Below are positions 27,388 to 44,761 of a DNA stretch of 64,000 bases, piece after piece. Each line of letters starts with the position of its first letter. Position 1 is the stretch's first letter. The notes beneath the pieces are model-generated. The model searched no databases, was not told where the DNA came from, and was given only the letters and a program-made list of their open reading frames with translations. Source of the DNA: Thermoanaerobaculia bacterium (GTDB lineage: Bacteria > Acidobacteriota > Thermoanaerobaculia > Multivoradales > Multivoraceae); contig OY762911.1 of NCBI GenBank assembly GCA_963666565.1, positions 2,464,001 to 2,528,000 on the forward strand. Reading direction: 5' to 3'. Made by a program: the position numbers and the translations under genes.

Positions 27388-27470
27388 CGCGGACCGTCGC
27401 GCATCGGCGGCTATGATCGAAGGACGCTGGTTGGATTCCTGGTTTCACCCGCTCTTGGGAGGGTAGTCGG

Positions 27471-28547
27471 ATGAGGAAGAACGAACGGTCGAGTGCCGCG
27501 GCGACGACAGGCGCCGTGGTCCTGTTGCTCGGACTCGCCGCCGGCGCGGTTTCGGCGGCCAACAACAACGCCAACGACGCGGACTGGACGATTCCCCGCA
27601 CCGCCTACGGCCATCCCGACCTCCAGGGCGTGTGGGAGAACAACAACGGCACGCCGCTGCAGCGGCCCGCCGCCTGGGCGGGCAAGGAGCGCCTGACGGA
27701 CGAGGAGTTCCAGGAGCTGATGGCCGCGGTCGCCGAGGCGACGGACCCCGGCGCGGACGCCCTGTTCGGCGACCAGCTCGTCCTCGCGGCGATCGAGCGG
27801 ACGAAGGCGACGTCCTACGACCCGACGACCGGCAACTACAACCAGTTCTGGATCGCGGACCGCTACTTCACGAAGCGCACGTCCCTCGTCGTCGATCCCC
27901 CCGACGGCCTCATCCCGCCGTTCACGGAAGACGCCAAGGAACGCCTCTGCAAGCGGGTGAAGCACCTGATGGAGCATCCGGCCGATTCCTGGCTCGACCG
28001 GCCGATCGCCGAGCGCTGCATCAGCTACGGCGCCCCCTTCATCTTCCCGGGCTACAACGGCTATCACCAGTTCTTCCAGAGCCCGGACCACGTCGTCATT
28101 CACCAGGAGATGATCCACGACGCACGGGTCATCCGGTTGGACGACGAGTCCGCGCTCGACGACGACGTCCGGCTGTGGAACGGCGACTCCCGCGGCCACT
28201 GGGACGGCGACACCCTGGTCGTCGAGACGACGAACTACTCGAAGAAGAACGACTTCATGGGCTCCTCGGAGCAGCTTGCGATCACTGAGCGGTTCACCCT
28301 GACGGACCCGGAGACCCTGGAATGGGAGGTCACGGTGCACGACCCGGGGACGTGGACGAAGCCCTGGACGGCCTCGATTCCCCTCAAGCGCACGGAGGAC
28401 GCCATCTACGAGTACGCCTGTCACGAGGGCAACTACGGCATGGAGGGCATGCTCGCCGGCGCCCGCGCCCAGGAAGCGGCGAACAAGCCGAAGCAGATCG
28501 ACCCGGGCGCGGCCTTCCGCTACCCGGGTCTGATCTGCGACTTCTGA
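27471..28547 (+). CDS. Conserved secreted hypothetical protein
   Basis: GGAGGG RBS, signal peptide, PRTAYGHPDLQGVW, GDSRGHWDGDTLVVETTN and YEYACHEGNY motifs. Confidence 0.8.
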   Translation: MRKNERSSAAATTGAVVLLLGLAAGAVSAANNNANDADWTIPRTAYGHPDLQGVWENNNGTPLQRPAAWAGKERLTDEEFQELMAAVAEATDPGADALFGDQLVLAAIERTKATSYDPTTGNYNQFWIADRYFTKRTSLVVDPPDGLIPPFTEDAKERLCKRVKHLMEHPADSWLDRPIAERCISYGAPFIFPGYNGYHQFFQSPDHVVIHQEMIHDARVIRLDDESALDDDVRLWNGDSRGHWDGDTLVVETTNYSKKNDFMGSSEQLAITERFTLTDPETLEWEVTVHDPGTWTKPWTASIPLKRTEDAIYEYACHEGNYGMEGMLAGARAQEAANKPKQIDPGAAFRYPGLICDF

Positions 28548-28588
28548 GCGGAGGGGCGCCGCTCTCTTCGGTCGGGTGATGGACCCGG

Positions 28589-28960
28589 CTACACGCACAT
28601 GATCTGGCTCATGCCGAGGAGTTGGTTGCCGTAGGTCTTGAGCCTCGGCTGCTTTGTGCCTTCGCCCAGGACGATGTAGACGATGCCGCTGAGCAGAAGC
28701 GTGGTGCAGCCCAGCTTCGACCAGCGGCCCCCTTCCGCGCTCTCCAGGTCGATCGTCCGGAGACCGTCGAGCTCGGGGCGAGGCAGGCTCGTTGCCTGCT
28801 TCGCGGGATCCCCGTAGAGCGCCGCATCCGCGTGGGGGGCCGCATCCGCGTACGGGGCCGCATCCGCGCGGAGCGCGGCGCCCGCGTCGGGCGCGGCGGC
28901 CAGGGGAGCGCCGGCGGTCGTGAGGAGGAGGGCCAGTGCGATGGCTGTGAGGTTCTTCAT
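28589..28960 (-). CDS. Small secreted precursor peptide B (signal peptide + double-glycine-type leader + two-Cys core)
   Basis: AAAGGAG RBS; MKNLTAIALALLLTTAGAPLAA signal; LRTIDLESAEGG motif; core RWSKLGC...MCV. Confidence 0.75.
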   Translation of the reverse strand: MKNLTAIALALLLTTAGAPLAAAPDAGAALRADAAPYADAAPHADAALYGDPAKQATSLPRPELDGLRTIDLESAEGGRWSKLGCTTLLLSGIVYIVLGEGTKQPRLKTYGNQLLGMSQIMCV

Positions 28961-29020
28961 GGTCGATGGCTCCTTTGCCTGTGGATGGTTGAGAAGAGGC
29001 TCTTGCCCCTCCTGTAGACA

Positions 29021-29057
29021 AAGACGCGATCCGGCGGCGAAACACGGTTTCGCCGCC
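29021..29057. promoter_or_regulatory. Shared 14-bp motif plus 11-bp hairpin upstream of peptide B
   Basis: AAGACGCGATCCGG (29021-29034) is identical to 30298-30311; stem GGCGGCGAAAC/GTTTCGCCGCC at 29033-29057. Confidence 0.45.
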
Positions 29058-29156: not shown

Positions 29157-29849
29157 TCAGCCGCTCAGCATCGTCTCGCGCCGTTCGGCGCGGGCGAAGG
29201 TGAGCGCGACGATGGCGGCGATGGCCAACGCGATGCCGATGCGGTTCTGGAGGCCCATGGCGAGCAGTTGCTCCGCGTCGGCGCCTTCTACCGCCAGAGG
29301 ATTCCAGAGCGGTGAGACCCGTAGCTGTGATGCTCCCGAGGCGGTGATCCAACCGTTCAGAGCCAGGATCCCGCCGGCGGCCAGGGCACCGGTTGCCTGG
29401 CTACGGAACAGAGTGGACATTCCCATTGACGCGGCCAGGTAGAAGATGACGCCTTGAAAGGCGCCGTAGAGAGTCTGGACGACAGGGAACGGCGTGAAGA
29501 AGGCGAAGGTCAGGATCGCCATCAGGCCGAGGGCCAGAAGCAGCATCAAGCAAGCGGCGGCCAGCTTCCCGATCCAGACGCGACGCGTTCCGCCCGGCAC
29601 TGTGTAGGCGACTTCGAGGGTACGTTCATCGAGTTCCCCTGCGACGATGCGGCCGCCCAGAAACACCCCGAGGACCGCGACCGGCAGTCCGATCAGGATG
29701 TTCTGGGCGGCCGCGGGCTCGAAGCTCGGGCGGCCGCCGGCGATCAGGAGGCCGGCCTGCGCCAGGAGCCAAAGTGCCGGCGACAGGGGCAGCAGCCACC
29801 AGCGGCGACCGGCGAGCAGCACGGCGGGTAGGTGGACCGGCGCGATCAA
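29157..29849 (-). CDS. Small ABC-2-type permease, paralog 2
   Basis: 230 aa, about 6 TM; GELDERTLEVAYTVPG; C-terminus nearly identical to paralog 1. Confidence 0.8.
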   Translation of the reverse strand: MIAPVHLPAVLLAGRRWWLLPLSPALWLLAQAGLLIAGGRPSFEPAAAQNILIGLPVAVLGVFLGGRIVAGELDERTLEVAYTVPGGTRRVWIGKLAAACLMLLLALGLMAILTFAFFTPFPVVQTLYGAFQGVIFYLAASMGMSTLFRSQATGALAAGGILALNGWITASGASQLRVSPLWNPLAVEGADAEQLLAMGLQNRIGIALAIAAIVALTFARAERRETMLSG

Positions 29850-30183: not shown

Positions 30184-30297
30184 GATGTTGATTCCTTTCT
30201 TTGGAAACGGGTTGTTCGAATGGCGGAGCGGCGTCTTCCGGCCCGGCGCGAGCACAGGGCCCGGCGCCGGGAACGGCTGCAGCTTCCGCTATGGACT

Positions 30298-30311
30298 AAG
30301 ACGCGATCCGG
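30298..30311. promoter_or_regulatory. Shared 14-bp motif upstream of peptide A
   Basis: AAGACGCGATCCGG, identical to 29021-29034. Confidence 0.45.
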
Positions 30312-30354
30312 ACGAAAAAGTCGGCGAACTCGTTTCCGGGGCGAAGTGACCGGC

Positions 30355-31047
30355 TCAGCCGCTCAGCATCTTCTCGCGCCGTTCGGCGCGGGCGAAAGTG
30401 AGCGCGACGATGGCGGCTATCGCGAGGGCGATGCCGATCCGGTTCTGTACGGCGAGCGCGAGTAGGCGTTCCGGGTCGATGTCCTCGATCGCCAGCGGGT
30501 TCCAGAAGGGCGAGACGCGCACGGGCTGGGTCCCCAGGCCGGTGATCAGGCCGTTGAAGCCGAGGACGGCCACGCTCGCGAGGGCGCCGGCCACTTCGCT
30601 GCGGAACAGCGTGGCGAACCCCATCGCGGCGGCGAGGTAGAAGGCGATGCCCTGAACGGCGCCGTAGAGGCTCTGGAGCACGGGGAAGGGAGTGAAGAAG
30701 GCGTAGGTGACCGCCGCCATGACGGCCACGCTGGCGCCCAGCAGCAGCCCGGCCGCGGCGAGTTTGCCGAGCCAGACGCGGTGGGCGCCGCCCGGCACCG
30801 TGTAGGCGATCTCCAGGCTGCGCTGGTCGAGTTCGCCGACGATCGTCCGGCCGCCGAGGAAGATGGCGAGCACCGCGACCGGCACGCCGATCAGCGTGTC
30901 CTGGGCCGCCGCGGGTTCGGCGGTTTCGCGGGCGCCGATCAGCAGCAGCAGTGCCTGCAGGCCGAGCCAGAGGAGCGGCAGCAGCGGCAGCAGCCAGAAC
31001 CGCCTGCCGGCCAGCAGCACGAGGGAGAGGCGAAGCACGGCCGTCAT
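30355..31047 (-). CDS. Small ABC-2-type permease, paralog 1
   Basis: ATG 31047 overlaps the upstream stop (ATGA); 230 aa; GELDQRSLEIAYTVPG; about 6 TM. Confidence 0.82.
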   Translation of the reverse strand: MTAVLRLSLVLLAGRRFWLLPLLPLLWLGLQALLLLIGARETAEPAAAQDTLIGVPVAVLAIFLGGRTIVGELDQRSLEIAYTVPGGAHRVWLGKLAAAGLLLGASVAVMAAVTYAFFTPFPVLQSLYGAVQGIAFYLAAAMGFATLFRSEVAGALASVAVLGFNGLITGLGTQPVRVSPFWNPLAIEDIDPERLLALAVQNRIGIALAIAAIVALTFARAERREKMLSG

Positions 31048-34000
31048 GCCGGCGCCTCCCCGCGCGCGGCACGGGCGAGCCAGAGATAGCCGTCCTCGAG
31101 CGTCGGTTCGACCGGTTCGGCGGCGTCGTTCGGTGGCCCTGAAGCGAGCACGCGCAAGCGGTTGCCTGCGGCTTCCGGCCGGCTGTCGGCCAGGACGGCG
31201 CCGGGCGGCAGGTCGGGTTGCTCCTCGCCCTCGGTCCGCCACGACCAGACTCGCCCGTCGGCCTCGCGCGACAGGGCGTCGGGCACGCCGTCGAACACCA
31301 GGCGGCCGCTGCTCAGCACGAGGACGCGCTCGCACGCCACCGCCACGTCTTCGACCACGTGGGTCGAGAACAGGACGATCCGGTCCTTGGCGAGCCGCGA
31401 CAGGAGGTTGCGGAAGCGCACCCGTTCGCGCGGGTCGAGGCCGACGGTCGGTTCGTCGACGACGATGATCGGCGGCAACCGGAGCAGCGTCCGCGCCACC
31501 GCGACGCGCTGGCGCATGCCGCCGGAGTAGCCGCCGATCGGTTCGCCGGCCCGCTCGGCGAGGCCGACCTCGGCCAGCAGGGACTCGATCCGCTCTTCCC
31601 GTACCTCCGGCTCTATCTGGTAGAGGGCGGCGTAGTACTCCAGGTACTGGCGGGCGGTCAGGCGGGCCGGCAGGCCGGCGTCCTGGGGCAGGTAGCCGAC
31701 CCAGCGCGCGAGATACTTGCGGATGCCGAGCAGCGGCACCCCTCCGATCGTGATCCGGCCGCGCGTCGAATCGAGGATCCCGGTCAACTGGCGGAGCAGG
31801 GTCGTCTTGCCGGCGCCGTTCGGCCCCAGCACGCCGACCATGCCGCGCTCCACGTCGAAGCTGACCGCCGCCAGCGCCCGCACCGTGTCGATGGGCAGGT
31901 CGAGGCCGAAGATCCGCGTCGCGGCGCCACGCCAGAAGACGAGCAGCGGGTTCCGGGAGCGACGGCGGTCCCGAGACGGGCTCTCCCGCCGCGCCGTCTC
32001 CCGGCGTGCGGTGCGGCGGCCCAACTGGACCACGGCGATGATGCCGCCGAAGATCGACAGGAAGATGGCCTCGGCGATGGCGAACTCGCCCGCGACCATC
32101 CAGGGCACGACGACGGCGGCCAGCGCGCCCCAGGGCATCAGCGCCGCCAGCACGCCCTCGACGCCGCCGGGCGCCACCCGGCCGAGCTCGTCGACGCGCC
32201 CGCGGGCCCGCCGGATCTCGAGCACCAGCCGGGACGCGATCGCGGCCGCCGCCGCGAGCAGGAGGAGCTTCCACAGCCCGTCCGCGATCCGGCTCACGGC
32301 GGCGATCGCGCCCGCAAGCAGCACGAGCAGGGGGAGCAGCCGGTCGCGGGCGTCGGCGGGGTGGAAGGGTTCGCCGTTCCGCGCCAGCACGCGCCGCGCG
32401 AAGTCGATCTTCGCGCGCAGCGCCCGCCGGAGCGGCCCGGGCAGGCCGTAGACCTTGCGCAGGTGCCGCACGACGAGTCGTGGCGGACCGTCCGCGGCCG
32501 CCGGCTCGGGCACGGCCTCCCTGGGCAGTGCCCGGACGGCGATGCCCAGCAGCGCGCCGCCGATCAGGATCGCCGTCGTGACCTGCCAGAACATCGACTC
32601 GACGACGTCGAACGCGAACAGCGGCCCGACGGCCGCGATCGTCGCGCCGAGCCAGACCATGACGACCCAGGGCCCGACCCGGCTGAAGAGTTCGTCGAGC
32701 CGGCGGAGGAACACGTAGCCGACGGGGATGACGAGCAGCGTGAGCACGGTCGCGGTCAGCAGTCCGCCGATGACCAGCACCGCGAAGGGCGGCCAGATCT
32801 CGTTGGCCCGGCCGGTGGGAATGGCGAGCGGGGCGAGCGCGGCGATCGTCGTGGCGCTGGTCATCAACACGGGGCGCGTCCGCTCCCTGACGGCGGCGAG
32901 GGCGGCCGCGCCGGCGCTCCAGCCGGCGCCGAGCGTCCGCTGCTGCATCCGGTCCACGAGCAGGACCGCCGGGTTCACCGCCAGTCCGAGCAGGACGAGA
33001 GCGCCCAGCAGGGCCATGCCGACCAGCCCCATCCCGCTGAAGACCAGCGCCCAGAGGGAACCGAGCAGGGTCAGCGGCAGGGCGAGCAGAACCAGCACGG
33101 GCAGGGTCATCGACTCGAAGGCGATCGCCAGGACGAGGAACAGGAGGGCGACGACCGGGACCAGGATCTTGCGGAACCAGTCCGTGCCCTGCGTGGACCG
33201 GTCGAGTTGCACGGTCGTGCCGGCGGGCCGGTAGACGGCGGCGATCGCGTCCTCGACGGCGCGGTCGAACGTCTGCCGCGCGGGGCCGCTGCCGGGCACG
33301 TCGCCGGACAGCCCGTAGGTCACCACCCGTTCGCGGCGCCCGTTGTGGTGGGTGATCACCGCCGCCGGCGGCGCCTGCCGCACGTCCGCCAGCGCCATGA
33401 CAGGCAGGACGCCCGCCCTGGTCGAGATCTGGAGCCGGGACAGGCCGGCGAGGGACACGTTCCGGTCGATCCCGCCGCCGTCCAGGACCTCCCGGTCGCC
33501 GAGCCCGCCCTCCAGCCGCTGAACCACGATCGGCAGCTCGCGGCCGCTGGGCAGCGGGTAGCCGCTGTTCATCCGGCTCCCCTCCCGGCCGGCGAGGTTC
33601 AGCATCGGCAGGACGTCGTCGAGCAGGACGCCGAAGGCCTCGAACGCGCGGCGATTCGGCCCGACGTGGATCTCCTCGGGGCCCGGCAGCACGGAGGGCG
33701 ACGCGTACGCGACCCCCTCGATGTTCCTGAGCCGGTCGGCGATCTCGTTCGCCAGGTCGGTCAGTTGTTCGTTGTCGTTGCCGGAGACGACGACCCGCTG
33801 GGGACCGCTGCCCAGCAGTTCCTCGGCGCCGCCGGCGCCGCCTCCTCCGCCGCCTCGACCGCCGCCGTCTTCCTCGCCGGGGCGGCTGAGCCTGATCGGC
33901 AACCGCCGCGCCGCGTCGCGGACGAGCCGGCGGACGCGGTTCGCGTTGAGGCCGGGCGGGCGCTCGTCCTCGGGCACGAGGTGTACCGTGAGCGAACCGC

Positions 34001-35846
34001 CCTCCTCGCGCACGAGGCTCTCGACGCGGTCGATCCCGTCGACGTCCCGCACCGACGCCTCGAGCCGCTCGAAGACTTGGACGGCGCCGTCCAGCGAACT
34101 CCGCCCCTGCGTGAGCCGTACCGAGAGCTGCACCTCGTCGGCGATTCGCGCCTGCGGTACGCCGCCCCCGATCACCAACGGCAACGCGATGACCGCCGTC
34201 AGGACGATCCCCAGCGCGACGAGGGTGACCAGGGTCGCCGGCCGCCTCAGGGCGGACGCGAGCCATCCGCTGAAGAGGACCCTGGTGGCTTCGGGCGGAG
34301 GTTCGCCGGCGAAGCGCTCCCGCCGTTCGCGCAGCACGGCGAGTCTCCGCAGGGCGGCCGGGGCCGCCAGCCAGCGCGCCAGCAGCGGCACCAGGCCCAT
34401 CGCGACGAGCAGGGAGCCCAGGAGCGGCAGCAGGATGGCCAGCGCGGCGATGGCGATCAGGTTGCGGATAGCGGGCGACCCGAGGTCGATCAGCATCGGC
34501 GGCAGGAAGACCGCCGCGGTCGTGGCGGACGCGGCGACGATGGCGCGCCCCGTGCGCCGGACGCCGCCGGCGGCGGCGGCGTCCGGGCCGTGGCCCCGCT
34601 CCAGGCGGCGCTGCACGGACTCGTAGACGACGACGCTGTTGTCGACCAGCAGCCCGACGCCGACCGCCAGGCCGAAGAGCGAGATCAGGTTGAGCGATTG
34701 CCCGGCGAGATAGAGGAAGCCGAGCGCCGACGCCAGACTGACCGGCACCGCGATCGCGACCACCGCCACCGCGCGCCACTGGCGAAGGAAGAGGAACAGG
34801 ACGAGCAGGGCGATGACGAAGCCGGAGAGGCCGAGATTGCGGAGCCGCTCCGTCTGTTCCTCGACCAGTTCGGCGGCGTCGAAGCCGATCGCGAGCCGCA
34901 CTCCGATCGGCGCCATCTCCTCGTTGATCTCGTCCACCCGCCTGCGGAGGTCGCGGCCGAGCCGGACCAGGTTCGCGCCCTCCTCCTGGAACGCGACGAG
35001 GCCGACGGCCGGTCGGCCGTCGACCCGGTTGGCCATCTGCCGGCGGCCCGGACCGATCTCGACGTGGGCGACGTGGCGGACGAGCACGGGGCGGTCGGGC
35101 CTCACCCGCACCTCGCCCAGGGACACGGGTCCCGCGGGCCGGCCGTCGAGCATGACCGCGGTCCGTCCGGCCTCGTCCTCCAGGCTGCCGAGGTAGCGGA
35201 GCCGCCCGGACGCTCCGCGGACCGCGTCGACCACCTCCTGCGGCGTCACGTCGAGCGCCGCGCAACGGTTCGGATCGACCCAGACCGTCAACTGCCGCGC
35301 GGCGCCGCCGGCCACCAGGGCCTGACTGACGCCCGGCACCGCCGCCAGCCGCGGCACGACGCGGTCCTCGACCAGTTCGTGGAGGGCGTCGATGTCCGCG
35401 GTCCCCGTCGCCTGGAGCGCCATCGCGAAGCTGGAGAGGATGCTGCTGTCGTTCGCCTGGACGTCGATGAAGGCGTCGCGCGGCTGGGTGCGGGCGATGT
35501 CGGCGGCCATCCGGTTGACGTCCAGTTCCCGCACCTTGAGGTCCGTGCCGCGCTCGAAGCGGATCGTGAAGGTGCCGGCGGAACCGGTCACCTCGCCCCA
35601 GGTCTCGGCGACGCCCGCCAGGGTGCGGACCCGCGCCTCCAGCGGCAGCAGCATCTCCCGCTCGACCGTCTCGGGCTCGCTGCCGGGGCGGATGAAGGAG
35701 ACGAACAGGCGGTCGCCGCTGACGTTCGGGAAGAGCTCGACCGGCAACCGCTGCCAGCCCACCGCGCCGACCAGCACCAGGCCGAGGAAGAACATGGCCA
35801 CCGCCACCGGGCGCCGGATGGCGAGGGTGTCGAGACCGTACTTCAC
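31044..35846 (-). CDS. RND (AcrB-like) permease fused to a C-terminal ABC ATPase domain
   Basis: AIRRPVA, GLLVDNSVVV and ERTRPVLMT (RND); GPNGAGKTT, YLPQD, YSGGMRQR, IIVVDEPT and STH (complete ABC motifs) in one 1600-aa ORF. Confidence 0.88.
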   Translation of the reverse strand: MKYGLDTLAIRRPVAVAMFFLGLVLVGAVGWQRLPVELFPNVSGDRLFVSFIRPGSEPETVEREMLLPLEARVRTLAGVAETWGEVTGSAGTFTIRFERGTDLKVRELDVNRMAADIARTQPRDAFIDVQANDSSILSSFAMALQATGTADIDALHELVEDRVVPRLAAVPGVSQALVAGGAARQLTVWVDPNRCAALDVTPQEVVDAVRGASGRLRYLGSLEDEAGRTAVMLDGRPAGPVSLGEVRVRPDRPVLVRHVAHVEIGPGRRQMANRVDGRPAVGLVAFQEEGANLVRLGRDLRRRVDEINEEMAPIGVRLAIGFDAAELVEEQTERLRNLGLSGFVIALLVLFLFLRQWRAVAVVAIAVPVSLASALGFLYLAGQSLNLISLFGLAVGVGLLVDNSVVVYESVQRRLERGHGPDAAAAGGVRRTGRAIVAASATTAAVFLPPMLIDLGSPAIRNLIAIAALAILLPLLGSLLVAMGLVPLLARWLAAPAALRRLAVLRERRERFAGEPPPEATRVLFSGWLASALRRPATLVTLVALGIVLTAVIALPLVIGGGVPQARIADEVQLSVRLTQGRSSLDGAVQVFERLEASVRDVDGIDRVESLVREEGGSLTVHLVPEDERPPGLNANRVRRLVRDAARRLPIRLSRPGEEDGGGRGGGGGGAGGAEELLGSGPQRVVVSGNDNEQLTDLANEIADRLRNIEGVAYASPSVLPGPEEIHVGPNRRAFEAFGVLLDDVLPMLNLAGREGSRMNSGYPLPSGRELPIVVQRLEGGLGDREVLDGGGIDRNVSLAGLSRLQISTRAGVLPVMALADVRQAPPAAVITHHNGRRERVVTYGLSGDVPGSGPARQTFDRAVEDAIAAVYRPAGTTVQLDRSTQGTDWFRKILVPVVALLFLVLAIAFESMTLPVLVLLALPLTLLGSLWALVFSGMGLVGMALLGALVLLGLAVNPAVLLVDRMQQRTLGAGWSAGAAALAAVRERTRPVLMTSATTIAALAPLAIPTGRANEIWPPFAVLVIGGLLTATVLTLLVIPVGYVFLRRLDELFSRVGPWVVMVWLGATIAAVGPLFAFDVVESMFWQVTTAILIGGALLGIAVRALPREAVPEPAAADGPPRLVVRHLRKVYGLPGPLRRALRAKIDFARRVLARNGEPFHPADARDRLLPLLVLLAGAIAAVSRIADGLWKLLLLAAAAAIASRLVLEIRRARGRVDELGRVAPGGVEGVLAALMPWGALAAVVVPWMVAGEFAIAEAIFLSIFGGIIAVVQLGRRTARRETARRESPSRDRRRSRNPLLVFWRGAATRIFGLDLPIDTVRALAAVSFDVERGMVGVLGPNGAGKTTLLRQLTGILDSTRGRITIGGVPLLGIRKYLARWVGYLPQDAGLPARLTARQYLEYYAALYQIEPEVREERIESLLAEVGLAERAGEPIGGYSGGMRQRVAVARTLLRLPPIIVVDEPTVGLDPRERVRFRNLLSRLAKDRIVLFSTHVVEDVAVACERVLVLSSGRLVFDGVPDALSREADGRVWSWRTEGEEQPDLPPGAVLADSRPEAAGNRLRVLASGPPNDAAEPVEPTLEDGYLWLARAARGEAPA

Positions 35847-35859: not shown

Positions 35860-38800
35860 TCAGGCGTCCGCCGGCCGGCGCCGCGTCAGGCGGAACGAGT
35901 CGAGGATCAGGTAGACGCAGGGGAGCACGAGGAGCGAGCCGACGGTCGAGGTCAGGATGCCGCCGATGATCGTGTACGCCATCGGCCCGCGGAGTTCGGC
36001 CGCTTCGCCGGCGCCGACCGCCAGCGGCAGGAGCACGAGGACGGTGGTCAGCGTCGTCATCAGGATGGGCCGGAGCCGGATGGCCGCGGCGCGGGCCAGG
36101 GCGGCGCGCCGCTCCATGCCGGCGGCCATCAGCCGGCGGGCGGTCGCGAGCAGCAGCACGGCGTCGTTGACCGCAACCCCGGCCAGCACGATCAGCCCCA
36201 GGAGCGCCATGACGCCGACCGGGTTGCCCATCGGCCCCAGGGTGCAGGCGACGCCGACCAGGGCCAGCGGGATGGAGAACAGCACGGTGAGCGGCTGCAG
36301 CAGCGACTCGAACGTGCCGGCCAGCACCATCAGCACGAGGACGATCGCCAGCAGGCCGGCCCAGCGCAGCTCGCCCACCGCCTGCTCGCGCTCCTCCTCC
36401 TCGCCGGCCAGGCGCACGATCATGCCGGGCGGCAGCGCGGCGGCGCCCAGCACTTCCTCGGCGGCCGCCACCGCGCGCGGATAGTCGCTGCCGGTCGCGA
36501 TGCGGGCCGTGACCTGGGCCACCCGGCGCTGATCCCGGCGGAAGACCTCCCGGGCGCCTTCGGCGGGCTCGAAGCGGGCGACCTGGCCGAGGGCGAGCCG
36601 GGCGCCGCCGTCGTTCGTGAAGCGGAGGTCGGCGAGGTCCTCCGGGCGGGGTTGGGGCAGGGTGAGGACGACGTGGCGTTCCTCGTCGCCGGTCGAGAGC
36701 AGGGTGACGCGCCGCCCGTCGAGCGCCGACTCGAGCACGCGCGCGATCGTCTGGAGATCGACGCCCAGACCGTCCGCCATCGCCCGGTCGAGTTCGATGC
36801 GGAGTTCGGGCGGCCCGCCCTCGAAGGAGGAACGGACGTTCCAGACCTCCGGGCGGGAGGCGAGGGCCTCGCGCAGCTCGGACGCCACGGCGCGCAGGTC
36901 GGGCAGGGACTGGCTCGCGATCTCGAGCGCGATCGGCGGGCCGGTCGATCCGAGCGCCTCGGCCAGGGCGGAGGCGCCGACCTCCCACTCGATCTCGGTA
37001 TCCGGTATGTCGCGGAACCGCGGCGACAGGGCGTCCACGATCTGGTTGCCCGTCGGGCCGTCGGGCGAGAGCCGCACCAGGATCCGGGCGGTGTTCTCCT
37101 CCGTCAGTTCGGTGGTCACCAGCCGGTCGTCCTCGGGCAGGCGGCCGACTTCGGCCTGGATCGCCTCCAGGTGTTCGCCCGCGGCCTCGCGGATCGCGGC
37201 CTCCAGGGTGGCAACCGCGTTGGCCGTGGCCTCGACGCGCTGGCCGGCGGGGCCCACCATGCGAATGGAGAACTGCCGCGGGTCGGAGGGCGGCAGGAGC
37301 TCGCTGCCGAGGCCGAGCAGGACGTGGACCGCGCCGGCCGCGGCCAGGACCGCCGCCGGAACGACCGCCCAGCGTAGCCGCAGCAGGCCCAGGACCAGGC
37401 GTTCCGTCGCCCTGAAGGCGCGGCCGAGGGGGGGCGCCTCTTCCTCTTCCGTGGCCTCTGGCGCGTCCTCTACGGCCGCCGCCGGTTCGCCGCTGTGGCC
37501 GGCGGAGCTGGCGGCCGCGGCCTTCGCCCGCGGCAGCAGCCAGCGCGACAGGGCGGGGATCAGCATCATGGCGACCGCCAGCGAAGCGCCGAGCGAGGCG
37601 ACGACGGTGAACGAGATGCCCTCGATCAGGCGGGCGGCGAGTCCCTGGACGAACAGCACCGGCAGGAACACGACGCAGGTGGTCAGGGTCGAGGCGGCGA
37701 TGGCTCCCGCCACCTCCGAGGCGCCGCGGGCGGCGGTGTCCGCGGCCGACACGCCGGGGCGGTGGCGGCGGTGAATGCTCTCGACGACGACGATCGCGTT
37801 GTCGACCAGCATGCCGGCGCCGAGCGCCAGCCCGGCGAGGGTGATGATGTTGAGCGAGTGGTCCGCCAGGCGCATGGCGAACAGGGCGACGAAGAGGGAC
37901 ACCGGAACCGCCGACGCGACGACCACGGTCGGTCCGAGGGAGCGGAGGAACAGCGCCAGGACGACGATCGCCAAGGCGATGCCGACCAGCGCGGCGTTCA
38001 TCAGGTCGTCCATCGCGTTCTCGACCAGCGCCGCGTCGTCGTTGACCATGGACACGCTCACCCTGGGGAGGTCGCGCTCCAGGTCGTTGAGCGCGTCCCG
38101 CACCGTGCGGGACACCTCGACCGTGTTGGCCCCGGCCTCCTTGAACACCTGGAGCCCCACGCCCTCCACGCCTCCGACCCGGACCAGGTGGTCGATCTCG
38201 GCGTCGGCCAGCGCCACGTCGGCGACGTCCGATACCCGGATCGGCTGGCGGGTCATCTGGCCGGCGGCGCCCTGCTGGGTACGGTAGCGAACCACGACGC
38301 GTTCGACGTCGCGCGCTTCGCGGAAACGGGCGATGCCGCGGACGAGGTAGACGTCGCCTCCGTCCTCCAGGGTGCCGGCGTCGATGTCCAGGTTCTCCGC
38401 CATCAAGCGCTGCTCGAGTTGATTCAGAGTGACGCCGAACGCCTCGAGCCGGTAGCGGTCGACCCGGACCTGCACCTCGAGGTCCCGTCCGCCGAGAACG
38501 CGCACCTCCGCCACGTCGGGAAGCTCTTCCATGGCGGGCGCCAGTTGCCGACGGGCCAGCCGGCGCAGCTCGGCGAGGTCCGGCCCGTCGTCCTCCGCCA
38601 CCAGGCCCAGGGTCATCACCGGCGCTTGGCGGGGGTCGAGATGCCGGACGAGGACCTCGTCGACCTCCGGGTCGGCGGCGACGGGGTTCACGGCCTTCTG
38701 GACCTCGATCAGGGCGAAGTCCATCTCGGCGTCCCAGTCGAACCGGACGGTTGCGATGAGCCGCCCGGAACGGGCCACCTGCTGCACTTCGCGGATGCCG

Positions 38801-39048
38801 CGCACGGTGAACAGCCGCTGCTCGACCTGCTCGCCGTACAGGCGCTCCATCTCGGTCGGCGGCCGGTCGCCGGAGCGGACCGCGACGACGATCGTGGGCG
38901 AGCGCAGGTCGGGCAGCAGGTCGATCGGCAGCTCGCGCCAGGAGATCCAACCGACGAGCGCGAAGGCCAGCGCGGTGACCGTGACCGCGACCGGGCGCCG
39001 CGCGGCGAGACGTGCCGCCGCGGACGTGCTACCGGGCGCCGCGGTCAT
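35860..39048 (-). CDS. RND efflux permease
   Basis: AARRPVA, GMLVDNAIVVVE and RLRPILMTT motifs; 1062 aa. Confidence 0.92.
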   Translation of the reverse strand: MTAAPGSTSAAARLAARRPVAVTVTALAFALVGWISWRELPIDLLPDLRSPTIVVAVRSGDRPPTEMERLYGEQVEQRLFTVRGIREVQQVARSGRLIATVRFDWDAEMDFALIEVQKAVNPVAADPEVDEVLVRHLDPRQAPVMTLGLVAEDDGPDLAELRRLARRQLAPAMEELPDVAEVRVLGGRDLEVQVRVDRYRLEAFGVTLNQLEQRLMAENLDIDAGTLEDGGDVYLVRGIARFREARDVERVVVRYRTQQGAAGQMTRQPIRVSDVADVALADAEIDHLVRVGGVEGVGLQVFKEAGANTVEVSRTVRDALNDLERDLPRVSVSMVNDDAALVENAMDDLMNAALVGIALAIVVLALFLRSLGPTVVVASAVPVSLFVALFAMRLADHSLNIITLAGLALGAGMLVDNAIVVVESIHRRHRPGVSAADTAARGASEVAGAIAASTLTTCVVFLPVLFVQGLAARLIEGISFTVVASLGASLAVAMMLIPALSRWLLPRAKAAAASSAGHSGEPAAAVEDAPEATEEEEAPPLGRAFRATERLVLGLLRLRWAVVPAAVLAAAGAVHVLLGLGSELLPPSDPRQFSIRMVGPAGQRVEATANAVATLEAAIREAAGEHLEAIQAEVGRLPEDDRLVTTELTEENTARILVRLSPDGPTGNQIVDALSPRFRDIPDTEIEWEVGASALAEALGSTGPPIALEIASQSLPDLRAVASELREALASRPEVWNVRSSFEGGPPELRIELDRAMADGLGVDLQTIARVLESALDGRRVTLLSTGDEERHVVLTLPQPRPEDLADLRFTNDGGARLALGQVARFEPAEGAREVFRRDQRRVAQVTARIATGSDYPRAVAAAEEVLGAAALPPGMIVRLAGEEEEREQAVGELRWAGLLAIVLVLMVLAGTFESLLQPLTVLFSIPLALVGVACTLGPMGNPVGVMALLGLIVLAGVAVNDAVLLLATARRLMAAGMERRAALARAAAIRLRPILMTTLTTVLVLLPLAVGAGEAAELRGPMAYTIIGGILTSTVGSLLVLPCVYLILDSFRLTRRRPADA

Positions 39049-39117: not shown

Positions 39118-40218
39118 TCATCCAGAGACGCTGACGCGGGTGCCGTCGGTCAGCGTTTCGAGTCCTCGGACGACGACCCGCTCGCCGACTTCGAGCCCCT
39201 GCCGCACCTCGGCGACCTCGTCGTCGCCGAGCCCGAGGACGACCTCGCGCCGAACGACGCGCTGCCCGTCGAGAACGAAGACGACGCGCCGGCCGCCCCG
39301 CTCGGTGATCGCCTCGCGCGGCACCACCGGGACTTCGTTCCGTTGCTCGACGACCAAGCTGACTTCGACGAACATGCCGGGCCGCAGCAGGCGGCCCGGG
39401 TTGCGCACGGCGACCTCGGCACGGAAGGTGTGGGTCACCGGGTCGACCTCGGGCGAGAGCCGGACGACCCCGCCGCCGAAGCTCTGGCCCGGCCAGGCGA
39501 AGTGCCGCAGCCGGGCTTCCTGGCCGGGGCGGACCCGCGCCAGTTCCGGGCCGACGAGGTCGATGTCGGCGATCAGCGAGTCGACGGGGGAGATGCGGGC
39601 GACCTGGAAGCCCTGGGTCACCAACTGGCCGTCGGCGACCGGCATGCCCTGGGCGTCGCGGGCGACCTCCATCAGCACGCCGCCGATCGGGGTGAGCAGG
39701 CGGGCCCGGTCTTCGGTGAGCAGACTCTGTTCCCAGCCCGCCTTCGCTTCCTCGAGCGACGTCTCCGCGCGGCGGAGCTCTTCGGCGCTGATCAGCTCCT
39801 GCTCGAACAGCCGGACGCGGGCGTCCCGCTCGGCCAGCGCCGAGAGGTAGGCCTTGTGGGTGACCTCGACCCGGGCGGCCAGGCGGGCGTCCTCGCCGGT
39901 GACCTCGGCGATGAGCTGGTCCGGAGTGACGCGGTCGCCCTCGGCGAGCCGGCGGCCGGACGGATGGCGCCCGACCTCCAGGCGGCCCGGGGTCTCGACC
40001 TGGAGCACCACGCTCTCGGCGGCCCGGAGCGTGCCGGTGGCCACGATCAGGTCCTCGACGTCCCCGGTCGTGACCTCGGCGGCGCTGACCGGGACCAGGA
40101 AGTCGATTTCGTTCGGGGCGCTAGCGGCCTGGCAGCCGAGGAGGACGGCGCAGGCGGCCGCCGCGGCAGCGCCGCGGCGGCGGACGGCGGGGGGGAATCT
40201 GCGGGCGGTCTCGTTCAC
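39118..40218 (-). CDS. RND periplasmic adaptor (MFP), lipoprotein
   Basis: GTG 40218 overlaps the upstream stop (GTGA); VLLGC lipobox; TPIGG, SPEVDPVTHTF and LRPGMFV motifs. Confidence 0.88.
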   Translation of the reverse strand: MNETARRFPPAVRRRGAAAAAACAVLLGCQAASAPNEIDFLVPVSAAEVTTGDVEDLIVATGTLRAAESVVLQVETPGRLEVGRHPSGRRLAEGDRVTPDQLIAEVTGEDARLAARVEVTHKAYLSALAERDARVRLFEQELISAEELRRAETSLEEAKAGWEQSLLTEDRARLLTPIGGVLMEVARDAQGMPVADGQLVTQGFQVARISPVDSLIADIDLVGPELARVRPGQEARLRHFAWPGQSFGGGVVRLSPEVDPVTHTFRAEVAVRNPGRLLRPGMFVEVSLVVEQRNEVPVVPREAITERGGRRVVFVLDGQRVVRREVVLGLGDDEVAEVRQGLEVGERVVVRGLETLTDGTRVSVSG

Positions 40219-43200
40219 TGGATCGCTACGCCTCCGCCGGTGGGCGCCGCGTCCGCGGCGCCGCCGGTGTCGAGCCGGACGAAGCGGACGGCGTCGGCCG
40301 CCACCGCGGTGCCCTCGGTCCGGTCGCTGAGCACCAGCGAGACGGGGCCGGACGCGAGGTCGAAATCGCCCAGGACCGCCCAGCCGGGGCCGGCGCTGGC
40401 GGCGTCGAAGTCGATGGATCGCGAACTGCCGCCGTTCTCGAGCTCCAGGTCGTAGTCGCCGAGCCGGAGGCCGAGGTTCACCGAGACCTGGACGCCCTCG
40501 TTTCCGCCCCGGCTGGGGGCGCCGCCGCCATCGTCGCCGATCCGCACCTCCCGCCGGATCTCTCCCGTGCCGGGCGGCAGCGGCGACAGGGACGGCACAT
40601 GGATCTCGACCCGCCAGCGGCCGGCTTGCGGCAGGTGGGCGCTGTAGGTTGCGCGGCGATCTCCCTCGCCGGCCGGGCCGACGACGGCCGTTCGCCGGTA
40701 GCGGCCCCAGCTTCGCGGCTGCCTGTAGCGCGACCACTCCCGGGGGGCGCCGAGGAAGGGCTGGTAGACGGGCAGGCCCCGGTCCAGCTCGATCGAGGGC
40801 GCGAAGTAGCCGGTCAGCCCTCCCTGGAGTCTCACGCCGCCGTCCGAGGCGGCCTTCTCGTCGCTGACCGAGAACCCGGAATCCAGGTCGTCGACGACGA
40901 TCACCTCGGTGTCCGCGTCGAGCCAGTCGGGCAACCAGTCGCTGGGCCGCGCGCCGCGCAGCGGCGCGCGCTCGACGATCCGCTCGCTGTCGACCGCGGG
41001 AAGGTCCACCGGGAACTCGCCCCGGTTGAGGGAGAGGTAGGGCGACGCGAGCATCAGTCCCGGCGGCGTCGACGTGACCAGCCCGAACTCCACCGAGGTC
41101 AGGCCCGGAACGAGGACCGGCTCGCTCGAGTCCCACCGCGGGCCGGCGTCGGACCGGACGGCGTAGCGGAGGCGGAACAGCCCCGGCGTCGGCTCGCCGT
41201 TGTGGACGGAGAGTCGGGTCTCGTACCGCGGGGCGCCCTGGTCGTCGTCGGCGAGGCGGACCAGGTCGGCGGCGGAGACGACGAAGCCGGGCAGGTCCGT
41301 GTCGTGCAGGAAGTCGCCCACCAGGCCGGCGAGGTCGATGCCCGCTTCCCCGGCGGCGCGGTCGAGGTCGGCGGCGTCGAAGGTCGTCCCCGCGTGGTCG
41401 CGCACCAGGTTCGCGACCATGGCCGCGGTCCGTTCGCGCCCGGCGCCGTCCAGGATGGCGGTGGCGAGCGCCGACGTCTTCAGATAGATGGCGTTGACCG
41501 CCCGCCTGGGATCTTCCTCCACCCTCAGGTCGGTCAGGGAGCTGCCGAGCACCGCCTCCCAGACTTCCGGGCGGTCCGTGATCGCGTTGACGATGCCGCT
41601 GGAGACGGAACCGCCGCCGGCCGCGAACTGGCCGCTGAACCCGTCCTGCAACGCGTTGCTGAGGGTCCAGCCCATGTTGCGGTCGAAGAGGTGGACGGAG
41701 AAGTAGGACTCGCCGCCGGTCACCAGCCGGTTGACCAGGTTGTGGCACAGCGCTTCCAGCGCCAGGGATTCGGGGCCGCGAGCGCCGGTGCGGTAGAGGA
41801 ACAGGTTGCGCGCGCCGCCCACCAGAATGTTGCCGCCGGTGTAGTCGTTGGCGAAGTAGTTCTCAAGTCCCAGCGCCTTGGCGCGCGGCAGGCCTCCTTC
41901 CCGGTCCTCGAACCGTTCGGGGTTGCGGAAGGTGAACTCGAAGCGGGAAGTCGGCAGTCCGTTCTCGCCGATCAGCAGCATGCCGGGCGGCGCCCTTGCG
42001 GTGTCCATCCTCCATCCGCCGCCGTAGCCGCGCAGGGTCCACGGCACCTCGACCAGGGAGAGTTGCCGGTAGGGGTAGGGGAGGCCGACTTCCCGGGCCG
42101 TGGCGAAGTGCTCGGCCGCGCGCTCCTCGATCGCCTCGCGGGCGTCGGCGAAGAACTCCAGGTTGCGGAGGTGGCGCCGGTCGAACAGCACTTCGATTTC
42201 GACGCCGTCGACCTCGGTCGTCCGGCGATCGTAGACGCCGGCGATCAGGGCGGCCTCCGGCACGGCCGCCGCCGGCCGGAAGCGTACGCGGTCGCCGTTC
42301 GGCTCGCCCTTGCCGGGGCCGGCGACGGTCCAGCCGGACGGGGCGCCGACGTCGAGGTCGAGCTCGAAGAAGTCCCGCGGCCGCTTCCGCGGGTCGTCGA
42401 CGCCGATCAGGGCGCCCGCGCGGGGCAGCCAGGCGAGGCCCGGGACCAAGGACACGAAGCGGCGCTCCAGTACGCCGTTGAGCGAGCCGAGAAGGACCAC
42501 CTGGGCGTCCTGGTAGCTGAGCCGCTCCAGGTCGATCGTCGAGTCCAGGTAGGCGAAGCGGATGTCGGGCCGGCCGCGGGCGCGCAGCCGCAGGTCGACC
42601 GTCTCGCCGGCCGCTGCTCGGCCGAGGTCGACCTCCAGCAGGCCGTCCCGGTGGGTGAAGGGGAGGGATCCGCCGGATCCGTGCTCGACCGCGTCGACCG
42701 CGATGCCGGGGTTCAGGCTGAACAGTGCCTGGGCGCCGCCGGCCGGGGCGAACCGGACCTCGAGGTCCAGGTCGAGGCGCCCCCCGGGCCCGATGTCGAC
42801 CGTGCCCCGGATGCGCTCGACATCGACCGCCGGCTCCTCCTGCCGGGCACGGTGCGCGTCCCGCCAGCCGTCGACCATGTCGAGTTCTCCCCGGCTTCCG
42901 CCGAACATGGCGACCAGGGTGGCGGCGCCGACGGCGCACAGGCCGCCGCCGCCGAGCCCCCAGGCGCGCCGGCGGGCGTCGTCGAGCCGCGGATGGACCG
43001 CGACGGCGATGCCGAGGAGCCCGGCGGCGAGGACCGTCAGGCTGCCCCGGTTCAGGATGTTCTCGGCGTTCCAGAGCTGCGGCGCCAGTTCCGAGATGTT
43101 GCCGGTGAAGCCGCCGTTGATGCCCAGGACGGGCAGCGCGTAGACCGGCAACCGCACGCTCAGCCAGATGCCGCCGATCGCGAGCCCGACGCCGGCCAGC

Positions 43201-43766
43201 GCCGCGACCAGCCGGTTCCGGCTCACCAGGGCGACGGCCTGGACGAAGGCGACGTAGAGCGCGAGGGCCGGTAGCGCGTCCAGGATCAGGAAGGCCCATA
43301 CGGAACTCCACAACGCGGGCTCGCCGACGTACCAGCCGAGGCCAATGGCGAGGTAACCGAAGCCCTGGATCAGCATCAGCGCCAGGACCGCGACGCTCAT
43401 CGCCATGAGCAGGGCGCCGGCGAACCGCCCCAGCACCAGTTCGGCGTTCGAGTAGGGCCGGCTGTCCAGGACCTCGATCACGCGGTCGCGCCGGTCCCGG
43501 GCGCGCAGGTCGAAGGCGAGGAAGATGACGCCGATGGCGAGGACGACCGTCTGCCACGACCCCATCTGAGCGAGCAGGTACCTGGGACTGAAGATCGAGA
43601 CGCTCCCCGACCAGCCGGACGCCAGGCCGTGGAAGGCCCAGTAGAAGCCGTACGACACCACGCAGTACAAGAGCGCGGCGCCGGAGAAGAACCAGAACCG
43701 GAACAGGCGGCGGATGGTGCGCATCTCGGCCCGGGCCAGGGTCCATGCCGCGGCGAGTGAAATCAC
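40215..43766 (-). CDS. Large ABC-2 permease fused to a degenerate M1-aminopeptidase-like ectodomain and a C-terminal golvesin/CBD-like domain
   Basis: N-terminal TMs with RDRRDRVIEVLDSRPYSN; FSLNPG and PYRQLSLVEVP; no HEXXH seen; C-terminal GWAVLGDFDL...LSD...ADAVRFV. Confidence 0.72.
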   Translation of the reverse strand: MISLAAAWTLARAEMRTIRRLFRFWFFSGAALLYCVVSYGFYWAFHGLASGWSGSVSIFSPRYLLAQMGSWQTVVLAIGVIFLAFDLRARDRRDRVIEVLDSRPYSNAELVLGRFAGALLMAMSVAVLALMLIQGFGYLAIGLGWYVGEPALWSSVWAFLILDALPALALYVAFVQAVALVSRNRLVAALAGVGLAIGGIWLSVRLPVYALPVLGINGGFTGNISELAPQLWNAENILNRGSLTVLAAGLLGIAVAVHPRLDDARRRAWGLGGGGLCAVGAATLVAMFGGSRGELDMVDGWRDAHRARQEEPAVDVERIRGTVDIGPGGRLDLDLEVRFAPAGGAQALFSLNPGIAVDAVEHGSGGSLPFTHRDGLLEVDLGRAAAGETVDLRLRARGRPDIRFAYLDSTIDLERLSYQDAQVVLLGSLNGVLERRFVSLVPGLAWLPRAGALIGVDDPRKRPRDFFELDLDVGAPSGWTVAGPGKGEPNGDRVRFRPAAAVPEAALIAGVYDRRTTEVDGVEIEVLFDRRHLRNLEFFADAREAIEERAAEHFATAREVGLPYPYRQLSLVEVPWTLRGYGGGWRMDTARAPPGMLLIGENGLPTSRFEFTFRNPERFEDREGGLPRAKALGLENYFANDYTGGNILVGGARNLFLYRTGARGPESLALEALCHNLVNRLVTGGESYFSVHLFDRNMGWTLSNALQDGFSGQFAAGGGSVSSGIVNAITDRPEVWEAVLGSSLTDLRVEEDPRRAVNAIYLKTSALATAILDGAGRERTAAMVANLVRDHAGTTFDAADLDRAAGEAGIDLAGLVGDFLHDTDLPGFVVSAADLVRLADDDQGAPRYETRLSVHNGEPTPGLFRLRYAVRSDAGPRWDSSEPVLVPGLTSVEFGLVTSTPPGLMLASPYLSLNRGEFPVDLPAVDSERIVERAPLRGARPSDWLPDWLDADTEVIVVDDLDSGFSVSDEKAASDGGVRLQGGLTGYFAPSIELDRGLPVYQPFLGAPREWSRYRQPRSWGRYRRTAVVGPAGEGDRRATYSAHLPQAGRWRVEIHVPSLSPLPPGTGEIRREVRIGDDGGGAPSRGGNEGVQVSVNLGLRLGDYDLELENGGSSRSIDFDAASAGPGWAVLGDFDLASGPVSLVLSDRTEGTAVAADAVRFVRLDTGGAADAAPTGGGVAIQ

Positions 43767-44761
43767 GATGCGTCCTCCTCTCGGGAACCCTGGCGGGCGA
43801 CCGCCTCGTCGTCGTCCCAGCAGACGTCGGCGTCGCCGTCGCTCTCGCCGAAGTGGCCGTCCCGCAGCAGATCCTCGGCGCGGCCGCGGGCGAGCATGAA
43901 GGCCAGGTACCCCTCCTCGAGCGTCGGGTCGGAGGCGGGCCGGGCGTTCTCGGGCAGGCGCCCCGGCGCCGCGACGCTGCGGTAGGTCGTCTCGGTGGGG
44001 CCGACCGTGCGCGAGACGATCTCGAAGTCGCCCTGCGGCGGCGGCGCGGAGGCGGGCAAGGTGAGCTCGAACACCTGGCCCTGGGCCCGTTCGAGCAACT
44101 CCCCGGGCGAGCCGCGGAAGACGATCGCGCCGCCGTCGAGCAGGGCGAGATCGTTGCAGCCGGCGCCGAGGTCGGCGACGATGTGGGTGGACAGGACGAT
44201 CGTCCGCTCCTTGCCCAGCGCCGTCATCAACTGGCGGAACCGGATCCGTTCCTCGGGGTCGAGCCCGACGGTCGGCTCGTCGACGATCAGCAGTTGCGGC
44301 CGGTGGATCAGGGCCTGCGCGATGCCGAGCCGGCGCGTCATGCCTCCGGAGAGCTTCTTCACCTTGCGGTGGGCGACCTCGCCCAGCCCGACGCTCTCAA
44401 GGACCGAGTCGACCCGGGCGCGCCGTTCGGCCCGGCCCTTCAGGCCCGAGAGATCGGCCAGCGTGTCCAGCGCCTCCTCCACCCGGTGCAGCCGCCAGGC
44501 GCCGAACTCCTGCGGCAGGTAGCCCAGGTGGGAGCGAACGGCACGGCGCTCCTTGAGCGCGTCGTGGCCGAAGACCGTTACGGCGCCGGCGCTCGGCTGT
44601 AGCAGCGTGCAGAGAATGCGCATCAGCGTGCTCTTGCCGGCGCCGTTCGGGCCCAGCAGACCGAACAGTCCGGCGCCGATCGACAGGTCGACCCCGTCGA
44701 GGGCGACCGTGCCTCCCTTGTAGACGTGCCGGAGGCCCTGCACGTCGACGGTCGTGCTCAC
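43763..44761 (-). CDS. ABC transporter ATP-binding protein
   Basis: GPNGAGKST, LSGGM, IVDEPT and STH motifs; GAGGAGGAG RBS. Confidence 0.93.
   Translation of the reverse strand: MSTTVDVQGLRHVYKGGTVALDGVDLSIGAGLFGLLGPNGAGKSTLMRILCTLLQPSAGAVTVFGHDALKERRAVRSHLGYLPQEFGAWRLHRVEEALDTLADLSGLKGRAERRARVDSVLESVGLGEVAHRKVKKLSGGMTRRLGIAQALIHRPQLLIVDEPTVGLDPEERIRFRQLMTALGKERTIVLSTHIVADLGAGCNDLALLDGGAIVFRGSPGELLERAQGQVFELTLPASAPPPQGDFEIVSRTVGPTETTYRSVAAPGRLPENARPASDPTLEEGYLAFMLARGRAEDLLRDGHFGESDGDADVCWDDDEAVARQGSREEDAS

Follow-up and report, generated by a model that had tools for sequence, protein, structure and literature searches.

Resistance-nodulation-division (RND) pumps are treated as strictly proton-driven and ATP-binding cassette (ABC) pumps as ATP-driven; the former are trimeric, while ABC motors work as dimers. 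Two-step efflux has been proposed for ABC and RND pumps that are separate proteins, and genetic data have led to the inference that inner-membrane exporters and RND pumps cooperate. To our knowledge, no covalent link between the two has been reported. We also know of no ATPase of the DrrA/GldA/NodI family with a membrane insert or an RND fusion. Among the closest described systems, MdtABC and MuxABC have an adaptor and two RND paralogues (MdtBC with a B2C stoichiometry), while in the ATPases of Wzt/TarH/KpsT-type ABC-2 (type V) transporters an extension between strands β1 and β2, beside the A-loop Tyr, forms a gate helix at the cytosolic membrane surface, next to the ABC-2 membrane domain (PMC6379404). 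Here we describe a minus-strand gene (31044..35846) in a stretch of 64,000 nucleotides from a Thermoanaerobaculia bacterium (contig OY762911.1, positions 2,464,001 to 2,528,000; hereafter the window). It encodes an RND permease fused to an ABC nucleotide-binding domain (NBD) whose first strand is separated from the second by a predicted membrane insert. The explanation that we prefer, with a probability of roughly 0.55, is two-stage export by an ABC-2 exporter that is hard-wired to a pump of RND proteins and adaptor. The wiring of RND and ABC parts through a membrane-split NBD is apparently undescribed; neither an RND-ABC fusion nor a membrane-split NBD was found in the openly accessible literature searched.

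The frame at 31044..35846(-) is open across 1600 codons plus the stop (GTG start, TGA stop) and is protein-like throughout, judged by sequence character and Pfam. Residues 8-1047 (32706..35825) match Pfam ACR_tran (PF00873) at 3e-139 over profile positions 4-1020 of 1021, a coverage that takes in the twelve transmembrane (TM) helices and the two large periplasmic loops of an AcrB-type RND permease, and the domain also aligns to solved RND chains. NCBIfam RND_permease_2 was matched over 3-1008 of 1009 positions as well, at a score of 356, far under the cutoff of 1250. Residues 1327-1467 match ABC_tran (PF00005) at 3e-26. With both domains in one frame, the proposal of the first-pass annotation that an RND permease is fused to an ABC ATPase at 31044-35846 was correct: the gene encodes a single polypeptide running from an RND paralogue through two extra TM helices to an ABC-2/DrrA-type NBD. 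The NBD core (residues 1322-1600, 31047..31883) extends from β2 through the H-switch to the C-terminal tail. It contains ALAAVSF (1324-1330, 31877..31857), Walker A GPNGAGKT (1341-1348, 31826..31803), Q-loop LPQD (1386-1389), signature YSGGMRQR (1440-1447), Walker B IIVVDEP (1460-1466) with the catalytic Glu and the D-loop, and H-switch STHV (1494-1497). The catalytic motif residues are invariant in an alignment of 37 sequences, so the annotated integrity of Walker A and B, Q-loop, signature and H-switch holds, and the positions it gave for the first strand (~32445-32480), ALAAVSF and Walker A were exact. We infer from this full set of ABC ATPase motifs that the NBD hydrolyses ATP.

In ABC ATPases, the N-terminal strand with the A-loop aromatic residue normally stands ~20-25 residues before Walker A. 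In the fusion, the NCBIfam profiles of stand-alone ATPases (DrrA, GldA, LptB and corrinoid ATPase) begin at residue 1313-1327 with profile position 3-16, and the first strand is thus absent from the contiguous NBD match. It was found upstream as RLVVRHLRKVYG (residues 1123-1134, 32445..32480), with 207 residues between Tyr1133 and Walker A. The spacing is only 22 residues in the free-standing ATPase of the same cassette (43763..44761(-)), which begins ...VDVQGLRHVYKGGTVALDGVDL... and has the Tyr at residue 14 and Walker A at 37; the two strands are therefore close together in this ordinary NBD, as had been noted at the outset. Furthermore, in an alignment of 46 sequences over the 270-aa linker/insert region, where identity goes down to ~20-35%, the only invariant columns were L80, K82 and Y84, that is, residues 1129, 1131 and 1133. 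Tyr1133 occupies the A-loop (adenine-stacking) aromatic position of ABC ATPases.

Residues 1050-1600 were modelled with AlphaFold2 from 37 sequences and without templates (model residue 1 is residue 1050). The model reached a predicted local distance difference test (pLDDT) of 86.3 and a predicted template modelling score (pTM) of 0.73, with model residues 75-84 as a strand. With VIA-align, model 73..479 was superposed on E. coli LptB (6b89_B, 2..227) over 221 of 226 residues, at a root-mean-square deviation (rmsd) of 1.7 Å and Z 27.1. Since nearly all LptB residues from residue 2 onwards are aligned while ~186 model residues are skipped, the strand takes the place of the first strand, and the suggestion that LRKVY rejoins the NBD sheet is supported. 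When folded without the NBD, the same residues came out as coil at lower confidence. The first-strand/A-loop feature is therefore present in space, in the model only, and not in sequence spacing. Taken together, the first strand of the NBD, carrying Tyr1133, lies 187 residues ahead of strand 2; its assignment to the NBD is supported by the model and conservation combined, the architecture of the protein as a whole is firm, and the model shows the two NBD halves, both cytoplasmic, reassembling into a normal ABC fold with intact catalytic motifs.

ABC-2 membrane domains also have six TM helices, the number of the extra helices in the fusion, and an alignment to ABCA4 (7lkz_A) spans model 1..545 with 343 residues, but at an rmsd of 9.2. 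From this it could be argued that the strand lies outside the NBD, that the six helices are the membrane domain of a half-transporter and that the NBD has no first strand. We regard this as very improbable. The strand's L, K and Y are the sole invariants of the 270-aa region, with the Y at the A-loop place, and the modelled strand is canonical when compared with LptB. Folded alone, the membrane module resembles no ABC membrane-domain fold. In fact, there is a sister subfamily of RND::NBD fusions of ~1390-1460 aa in which the strand Tyr stands 46-71 residues before Walker A, with no extra TM helices but a soluble β1-β2 insert.

The split arrangement recurs in many proteins. Residues 1050-1600 were searched against 5.8 billion proteins; 120 matches were listed, and the window's own protein is left out of the counts that follow. 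Among the matches listed, 108 of 119 homologues are longer than 1500 aa and the other 11 have 913-1339 aa. The motif [LIVM]x[LIVM][KR]xLxKxY was present 150-260 residues before Walker A in 105 of the 108, indicating that the split spacing is not due to chance. This count used a strict motif, because a looser pattern, which picked the last strand-like motif ahead of Walker A, yielded spurious intermediate spacings. In a profile-free search of 1.84 billion cluster representatives there were more proteins of ~1560-1600 aa, 35-60% identical across the C-terminal 551 residues, and a looser strand motif stood at matching spacing in 25 of 32 distant representatives of 1500-1700 aa. The source names of the homologues are generic ('ATP-binding cassette domain-containing protein', 'efflux RND transporter permease subunit', 'hypothetical protein').

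These homologues also bear on whether an assembly, frameshift or gene-calling artefact has joined two or three separate genes. At the ~73% G+C of the window long shadow open reading frames (ORFs) abound, and three ORFs of ~1600 codons overlap at 30355-35969. Two of them, 30355-35265(-) and 31218-35969(+), were rejected as shadows; protein character and domains are found only in 31044..35846(-), where real RND and ABC domains stand end to end in frame. Contigs of four public runs, which come from one study with at most three samples and are possibly the assembly's own source, were compared with 30900-33000: they cover it fully with zero differing letters and zero indels, and single contigs run across 31802-33000, a stretch that takes in the strand and the insert and reaches into the NBD. 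However, no single Logan contig spans 31800-31822. This is the sole contig break; it appears in all four runs, together with a spike of summed depth up to ~50-fold, and it coincides with the Walker A words. Because these words are common to many ABC genes, the break fits shared 31-mers and not a mis-join, and the flanking contigs overlap by 18 bases without difference. The homologues are the stronger evidence, since the public runs may be the assembly's own source: 108 single-ORF proteins from many independent assemblies, with labels of Acidobacteriota, Gammaproteobacteria and Planctomycetota. The genome itself was assembled as one 4.79-Mb contig with a single copy of the fusion. An artefact, which the first-pass annotation had asked to be checked, is therefore hardly credible.

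Homologues consisting of two genes, which it had also named as a possible objection, did not turn up either. The matches listed are predominantly single ORFs of more than 1500 aa, and a search among shorter proteins returned 21 hits, most of them fragments still carrying the RND domain. Only six of the 21 were without it, and four of these six, found on 2-3 kb contigs, may be truncated. The six short hits are thus no evidence for a free-standing split NBD. When contigs were scanned with generic Walker A/signature patterns, one of 80 loci among the matches listed (L001) proved to be a true fusion homologue.

Between the RND domain and the NBD core, six extra hydrophobic segments were found. Kyte-Doolittle analysis gave two from RND TM12 to the strand (1057-1082 and 1084-1108) and four from the strand to the NBD core (1169-1192, 1190-1212, 1228-1253 and 1249-1278), and AlphaFold2 reproduced all six, the first two as model helices 2-29 and 36-57. 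TM13 and TM14 (residues 1051-1106, 32529..32696) return the chain to the cytoplasm after RND TM12, according to hydropathy, the model and loop charges. The β1-β2 insert (residues 1135-1321, 31884..32444) consists of a basic amphipathic helix (model 89-106), the four TM helices and a second short helix, and a cytoplasmic loop of the four-TM part, RRARG...PGG.EG, is conserved. The periplasmic loops, of 6, 4 and 4 residues, contain no K/R in their 14 positions, whereas the cytoplasmic segments have 12, 3 and 7 K+R. This confinement of K/R places the RND C-terminus, the strand, the RRARG...PGG.EG loop and the NBD core all in the cytoplasm. The ~190-aa insertion with roughly four hydrophobic segments proposed in the first-pass annotation thus corresponds to 187 residues with four segments by both methods, and topology and loop charges agree with its view of an NBD anchored twice in the membrane and tethered to an RND protomer.

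The insert occupies the β1-β2 connection, as the model shows, which is the site of the Wzt gate helix, and it starts with a basic amphipathic helix. The Wzt type has one surface helix there, whereas the fusion has 187 residues with four TM helices. It is also different from the Wzt type in that its NBD and an RND permease form one chain. A C-terminal carbohydrate-binding domain was not detected in the fusion, and no Wzt-specific family or structure stood out among its matches. Together with the soluble inserts of the sister subfamily, the position of the insert suggests that a gate-helix-like element may have been enlarged into the bilayer. The best families of the NBD are DrrA, GldA and NodI (GldA 3e-48, DrrA 4e-48, both below curated cutoffs), and the best structural match of the model with VIA-align was TM_1403 (4yer_B; Z 29.3, model 71..544, 264 residues, 31% identity), including the C-terminal extension. 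However, known members of the DrrA family are soluble subunits of ~230-330 aa in which only a few residues separate strands 1 and 2, as in 43763..44761(-).

The fusion belongs to a cassette of six tightly packed minus-strand genes: free ATPase, ABC2big, adaptor, RND1, fusion and permA. The free ATPase (43763..44761) is of the DrrA/GldA type with an unsplit first strand, by family profiles and motif spacing, and overlaps ABC2big by 4 nt (43763-43766). ABC2big (40215..43766, 1183 aa) starts with an ABC-2 membrane domain and ends in a Golvesin_C-like domain; the large unassigned domain between them comprises ~900 residues that have no family match. The adaptor (39118..40218) is a periplasmic membrane fusion protein with a lipoprotein-like N-terminus, matching TIGR01730 RND_mfp with 165.5 bits (cutoff 94.9); its start is probably a GTG overlapping the upstream stop. 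RND1 (35860..39048) is a plain RND permease paralogue of 1062 aa (Pfam ACR_tran, 3.4e-199), ends 13 nt before the fusion starts and is ~31% identical to the fusion.

The last gene, permA (30355..31047), encodes a 230-aa ABC-2-type permease with six TM helices, and its ATG overlaps the TGA of the fusion (ATGA, 31044-31047). It was delimited by frame analysis of third-position G+C (GC3), the start/overlap and synteny; it had no Pfam hit. A 258-aa ORF at 30296..31072(-) was rejected as a wrong-frame shadow, since GC3 favours the permA frame, and the true downstream genes are permA and its tandem paralogue permB (29157..29849(-), 67% identical). The latter matches PF12679 (ABC2_membrane_2) at 5.7e-6, under the gathering score. 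Both have the features of ABC-2 permeases: the chain forms six TM helices, and TM2 is followed by a conserved acidic coupling motif, which reads E-x-D-x-x-x-L-E in a 15-sequence alignment with E72 and E79 invariant.

The cassette was traced by tblastn of window proteins in 14 loci, 13 from genomes of the phylum plus a Pseudomonadales metagenome-assembled genome (MAG, L001). All 14 have the adaptor, RND1 and the fusion, the last of these followed directly by a permease of 230-270 aa. An ABC2big homologue was also beside the cassette in all of them, although L001 is cut by the contig end and retains only the C-terminal part (query 810-1172). The free ATPase was beside the cassette in 12 of 14; in L117 and in L001, where the contig ends, it gave no match of its own. 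Gene content beyond the permease varies among loci.

The C-terminal 551 residues of the fusion were modelled in complex with permA in three runs, along with three controls. The interface score (ipSAE) was 0.63 (runs 0.61, 0.64 and 0.63), against 0.00 for the best of the three controls. Of the solved complexes used for calibration, 58 of 80 attained the mark set for this score, as did 2 of 110 mismatched pairs; these counts are rough here, since the alignments were self-supplied. The runs had at least 78% of contacts in common, with a partner pLDDT of at least 76. Confident contacts joined NBD residues 303-361, 403 and 84-85, in the numbering of the C-terminal-551 model, to permease residues 1-15, 75-91 and 224-229. 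The predicted contact thus sets the Q-loop groove on the conserved coupling motif of the permease, which is the textbook ABC type of NBD/coupling-helix contact.

In the two-stage export that we prefer, the fused NBD would dock on the conserved E-x-D-x-x-x-L-E coupling helix of the small six-TM ABC-2 permease, whose gene is downstream and translationally coupled, and would drive this permease; it may also work with the free ATPase and the large ABC-2 protein of the cassette. The ABC part would shift the substrate from the cytoplasm or the inner leaflet to the periplasmic side, and the tethered pump of RND1, RND2 (the fusion) and the adaptor would carry it onward. The cassette would then be a hard-wired version of two-step efflux by separate ABC and RND pumps. 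The idea that the NBD energises the adjacent small permease, raised in the first-pass annotation, received some support from the ATGA overlap, the synteny in 14 of 14 loci and the complex model.

Several observations weigh against this explanation. The mismatch between a trimeric RND pump and a dimeric ABC motor complicates the stoichiometry of the fused assembly, and no outer-membrane factor gene was recognised among the ORFs scanned beside the cassette. The complex model may have passed by mirroring likeness to solved ABC transporters and, according to the calibration of the tool, a close cousin of the true partner of the NBD would probably pass too. It also gave no confident contact for the four inserted helices. 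The membrane module itself (1050-1319), though folded alone at a pLDDT of 88.8 (model m75d7eb71fde1), could be assigned to no known fold: against 48,161 chains with VIA-align the best Z was 7.9, for helical hairpins only, and Foldseek against the PDB returned nothing at E <= 0.001. The absence of a match to a solved fold does not show that the fold of the module is new. Finally, in the sister subfamily, the free ATPase adjoins the small permease, which makes gene adjacency an unsafe guide to pairing. The sister clusters, at metagenome loci of 33% G+C (L124:2248-11232 and L120:5956-10278), run in the order adaptor, free ATPase, small permease, RND1, 872-aa membrane protein and RND::NBD. Their small permease is homologous to permA (hhalign probability 95.7%), and the 872-aa protein has a Peptidase_M1-like tail. 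Because the same parts are ordered differently there, adjacency does not settle which NBD pairs with which membrane protein.

The presence of the same six parts in split and unsplit subfamilies, with differing gene order, leads to a variant of the preferred explanation with other partners. There may be one heteromeric ABC-2 transporter, in which the fused NBD has the free ATPase as its partner and the small permease has the membrane domain of ABC2big, forming a single ABC heterodimer attached to an RND1/RND2 heterotrimer. One free and one fused NBD would ease the trimer/dimer mismatch, and the two ATPases are 37% identical and both of the DrrA/GldA type. However, each ATPase overlaps its own downstream permease gene, by 4 nt at 43763-43766 and by ATGA at 31044-31047, and these two overlaps fit two separate pairs. 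We consider the heteromeric transporter rather unlikely.

The two-stage exporter resembles known systems in part. As in MdtABC and MuxABC, two RND paralogues, here RND1 and the fusion, are encoded next to each other behind an adaptor gene, and MdtB and MdtC profiles were among the hits for both. It is different from them in the 550 extra residues with an ABC motor, and an assembly of its paralogues into one heterotrimer is putative. As in MacAB-TolC, an ABC motor and a periplasmic adaptor occur in one envelope-spanning system, and the NBD of MacB (5lj6) aligned to the fused NBD over 217 residues at an rmsd of 1.8 (Z 26.5). However, MacB lacks an RND domain and acts as the inner-membrane transporter itself, whereas in the fusion an RND permease has gained the ABC motor, and the ABC-2 permease is a separate protein.

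The proton relay of HAE-1 pumps consists of an Asp-Asp pair in TM4, a Lys in TM10 and an Arg in TM11 (AcrB numbering). We compared the corresponding stretches of the fusion (32697-33209 and 34347-34859(-)) and RND1 (35860-39048(-)). TM4 of the fused RND reads VDN, against VDD in solved HAE-1 chains (7cz9, 8zxs and 7wlv), and TM10 reads VNP, against CKN in solved HAE-1 pumps; the TM11 Arg-Pro is retained. These features are general in the family: among 137 full-length homologues, TM4 was DN in 133, while TM10 was NP in 114, NN in 15, NS in 2, NG in 1 and gave no regex match in 5. RND1 has VDN in TM4 and VND in TM10, the N-D being found in the window and in 12 of 14 loci, whereas the fused paralogue has no TM10 Asp in the 14 loci examined. 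Judged from these residues, the fused paralogue has one membrane carboxylate fewer than RND1. Both paralogues of the window depart from HAE-1 pumps in their TM4 D-N and their lack of a TM10 Lys, and since RND1 shares this state, the relay of the whole clade differs from that of AcrB. We speculate that the fused protomer may not translocate protons.

With the two HAE-1 relay residues replaced in TM4 and TM10, and with a covalent link formed by TM helices that may lie against the membrane domain of the RND part, it is conceivable, as the first-pass annotation also suggested, that the NBD powers or gates the fused RND protomer via the six extra helices, replacing or supplementing the proton relay. 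The loss of the TM10 Asp from the fused paralogue but not from RND1 would fit this. However, RND1 is itself D-N in TM4 without the Lys, so that such differences need not mean lost proton coupling. The coupling helix of the permease is predicted to fill the NBD groove, and a conserved, translationally coupled ABC-2 permease would be unnecessary in such a pump. We consider an NBD-powered RND protomer unlikely. A dual-energy machine, with an ABC motor coupled through the insert and linker helices to drive or gate the conformational cycle of an RND protomer whose proton relay is partly lost, is doubtful to a similar degree; an assembly of RND1 and fusion protomers would here supply two NBDs for an ABC dimer. 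If true, this would make it the first RND transporter coupled to ATP, with the first ABC domain whose fold is threaded through the membrane.

Whichever partner the NBD drives, the conserved fusion is a natural 'Rosetta stone' for ABC-RND coupling. As modelled, it indicates that the ABC nucleotide-binding fold tolerates a four-helix membrane domain between its first two strands, which bears on the evolution of the Wzt-type gate helix and on how NBD motion may reach helices other than the coupling helix. The family occurs widely among uncultured Acidobacteriota, and homologue records are labelled Holophagales, Thermoanaerobaculia, Acidobacteriota, Gammaproteobacteria (including the Pseudomonadales MAG, L001) and Planctomycetota. 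Its distribution within the phylum is patchy: 20 of 151 phylum genomes sampled (G000 included) had a match at E <= 1e-60, and at this threshold none was found in the three same-order and eight same-class genomes sampled.

A few other features of the window were recorded. The periplasmic part of the fused RND domain contains a Gly-rich insert (residues 657-676, 33819..33878(-)), and a poly-G run at this position is also found in the family consensus. Pfam returned nothing for a 544-aa ORF (27411..29045) or for 45046..45732 and 45729..46484, and NCBIfam had no family for ABC2big, permA, the 544-aa ORF or two small secreted ORFs next to permA and permB. Upstream of the cassette are an ORF with Cu2_monoox_C and EF-hand matches (45114-46463(+)) and a sulfatase-family ORF (46758-48272(-)), with no evident link to the cassette. 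Downstream of the fusion, there is a tandem duplication (28589-31047(-)) comprising permA, a 97-aa ORF (29890-30183), permB and a 123-aa ORF (28589-28960), unlike the other 14 loci, which have a single permease after the fusion. The 97-aa and 123-aa ORFs both carry signal peptides and both end in ...CV.

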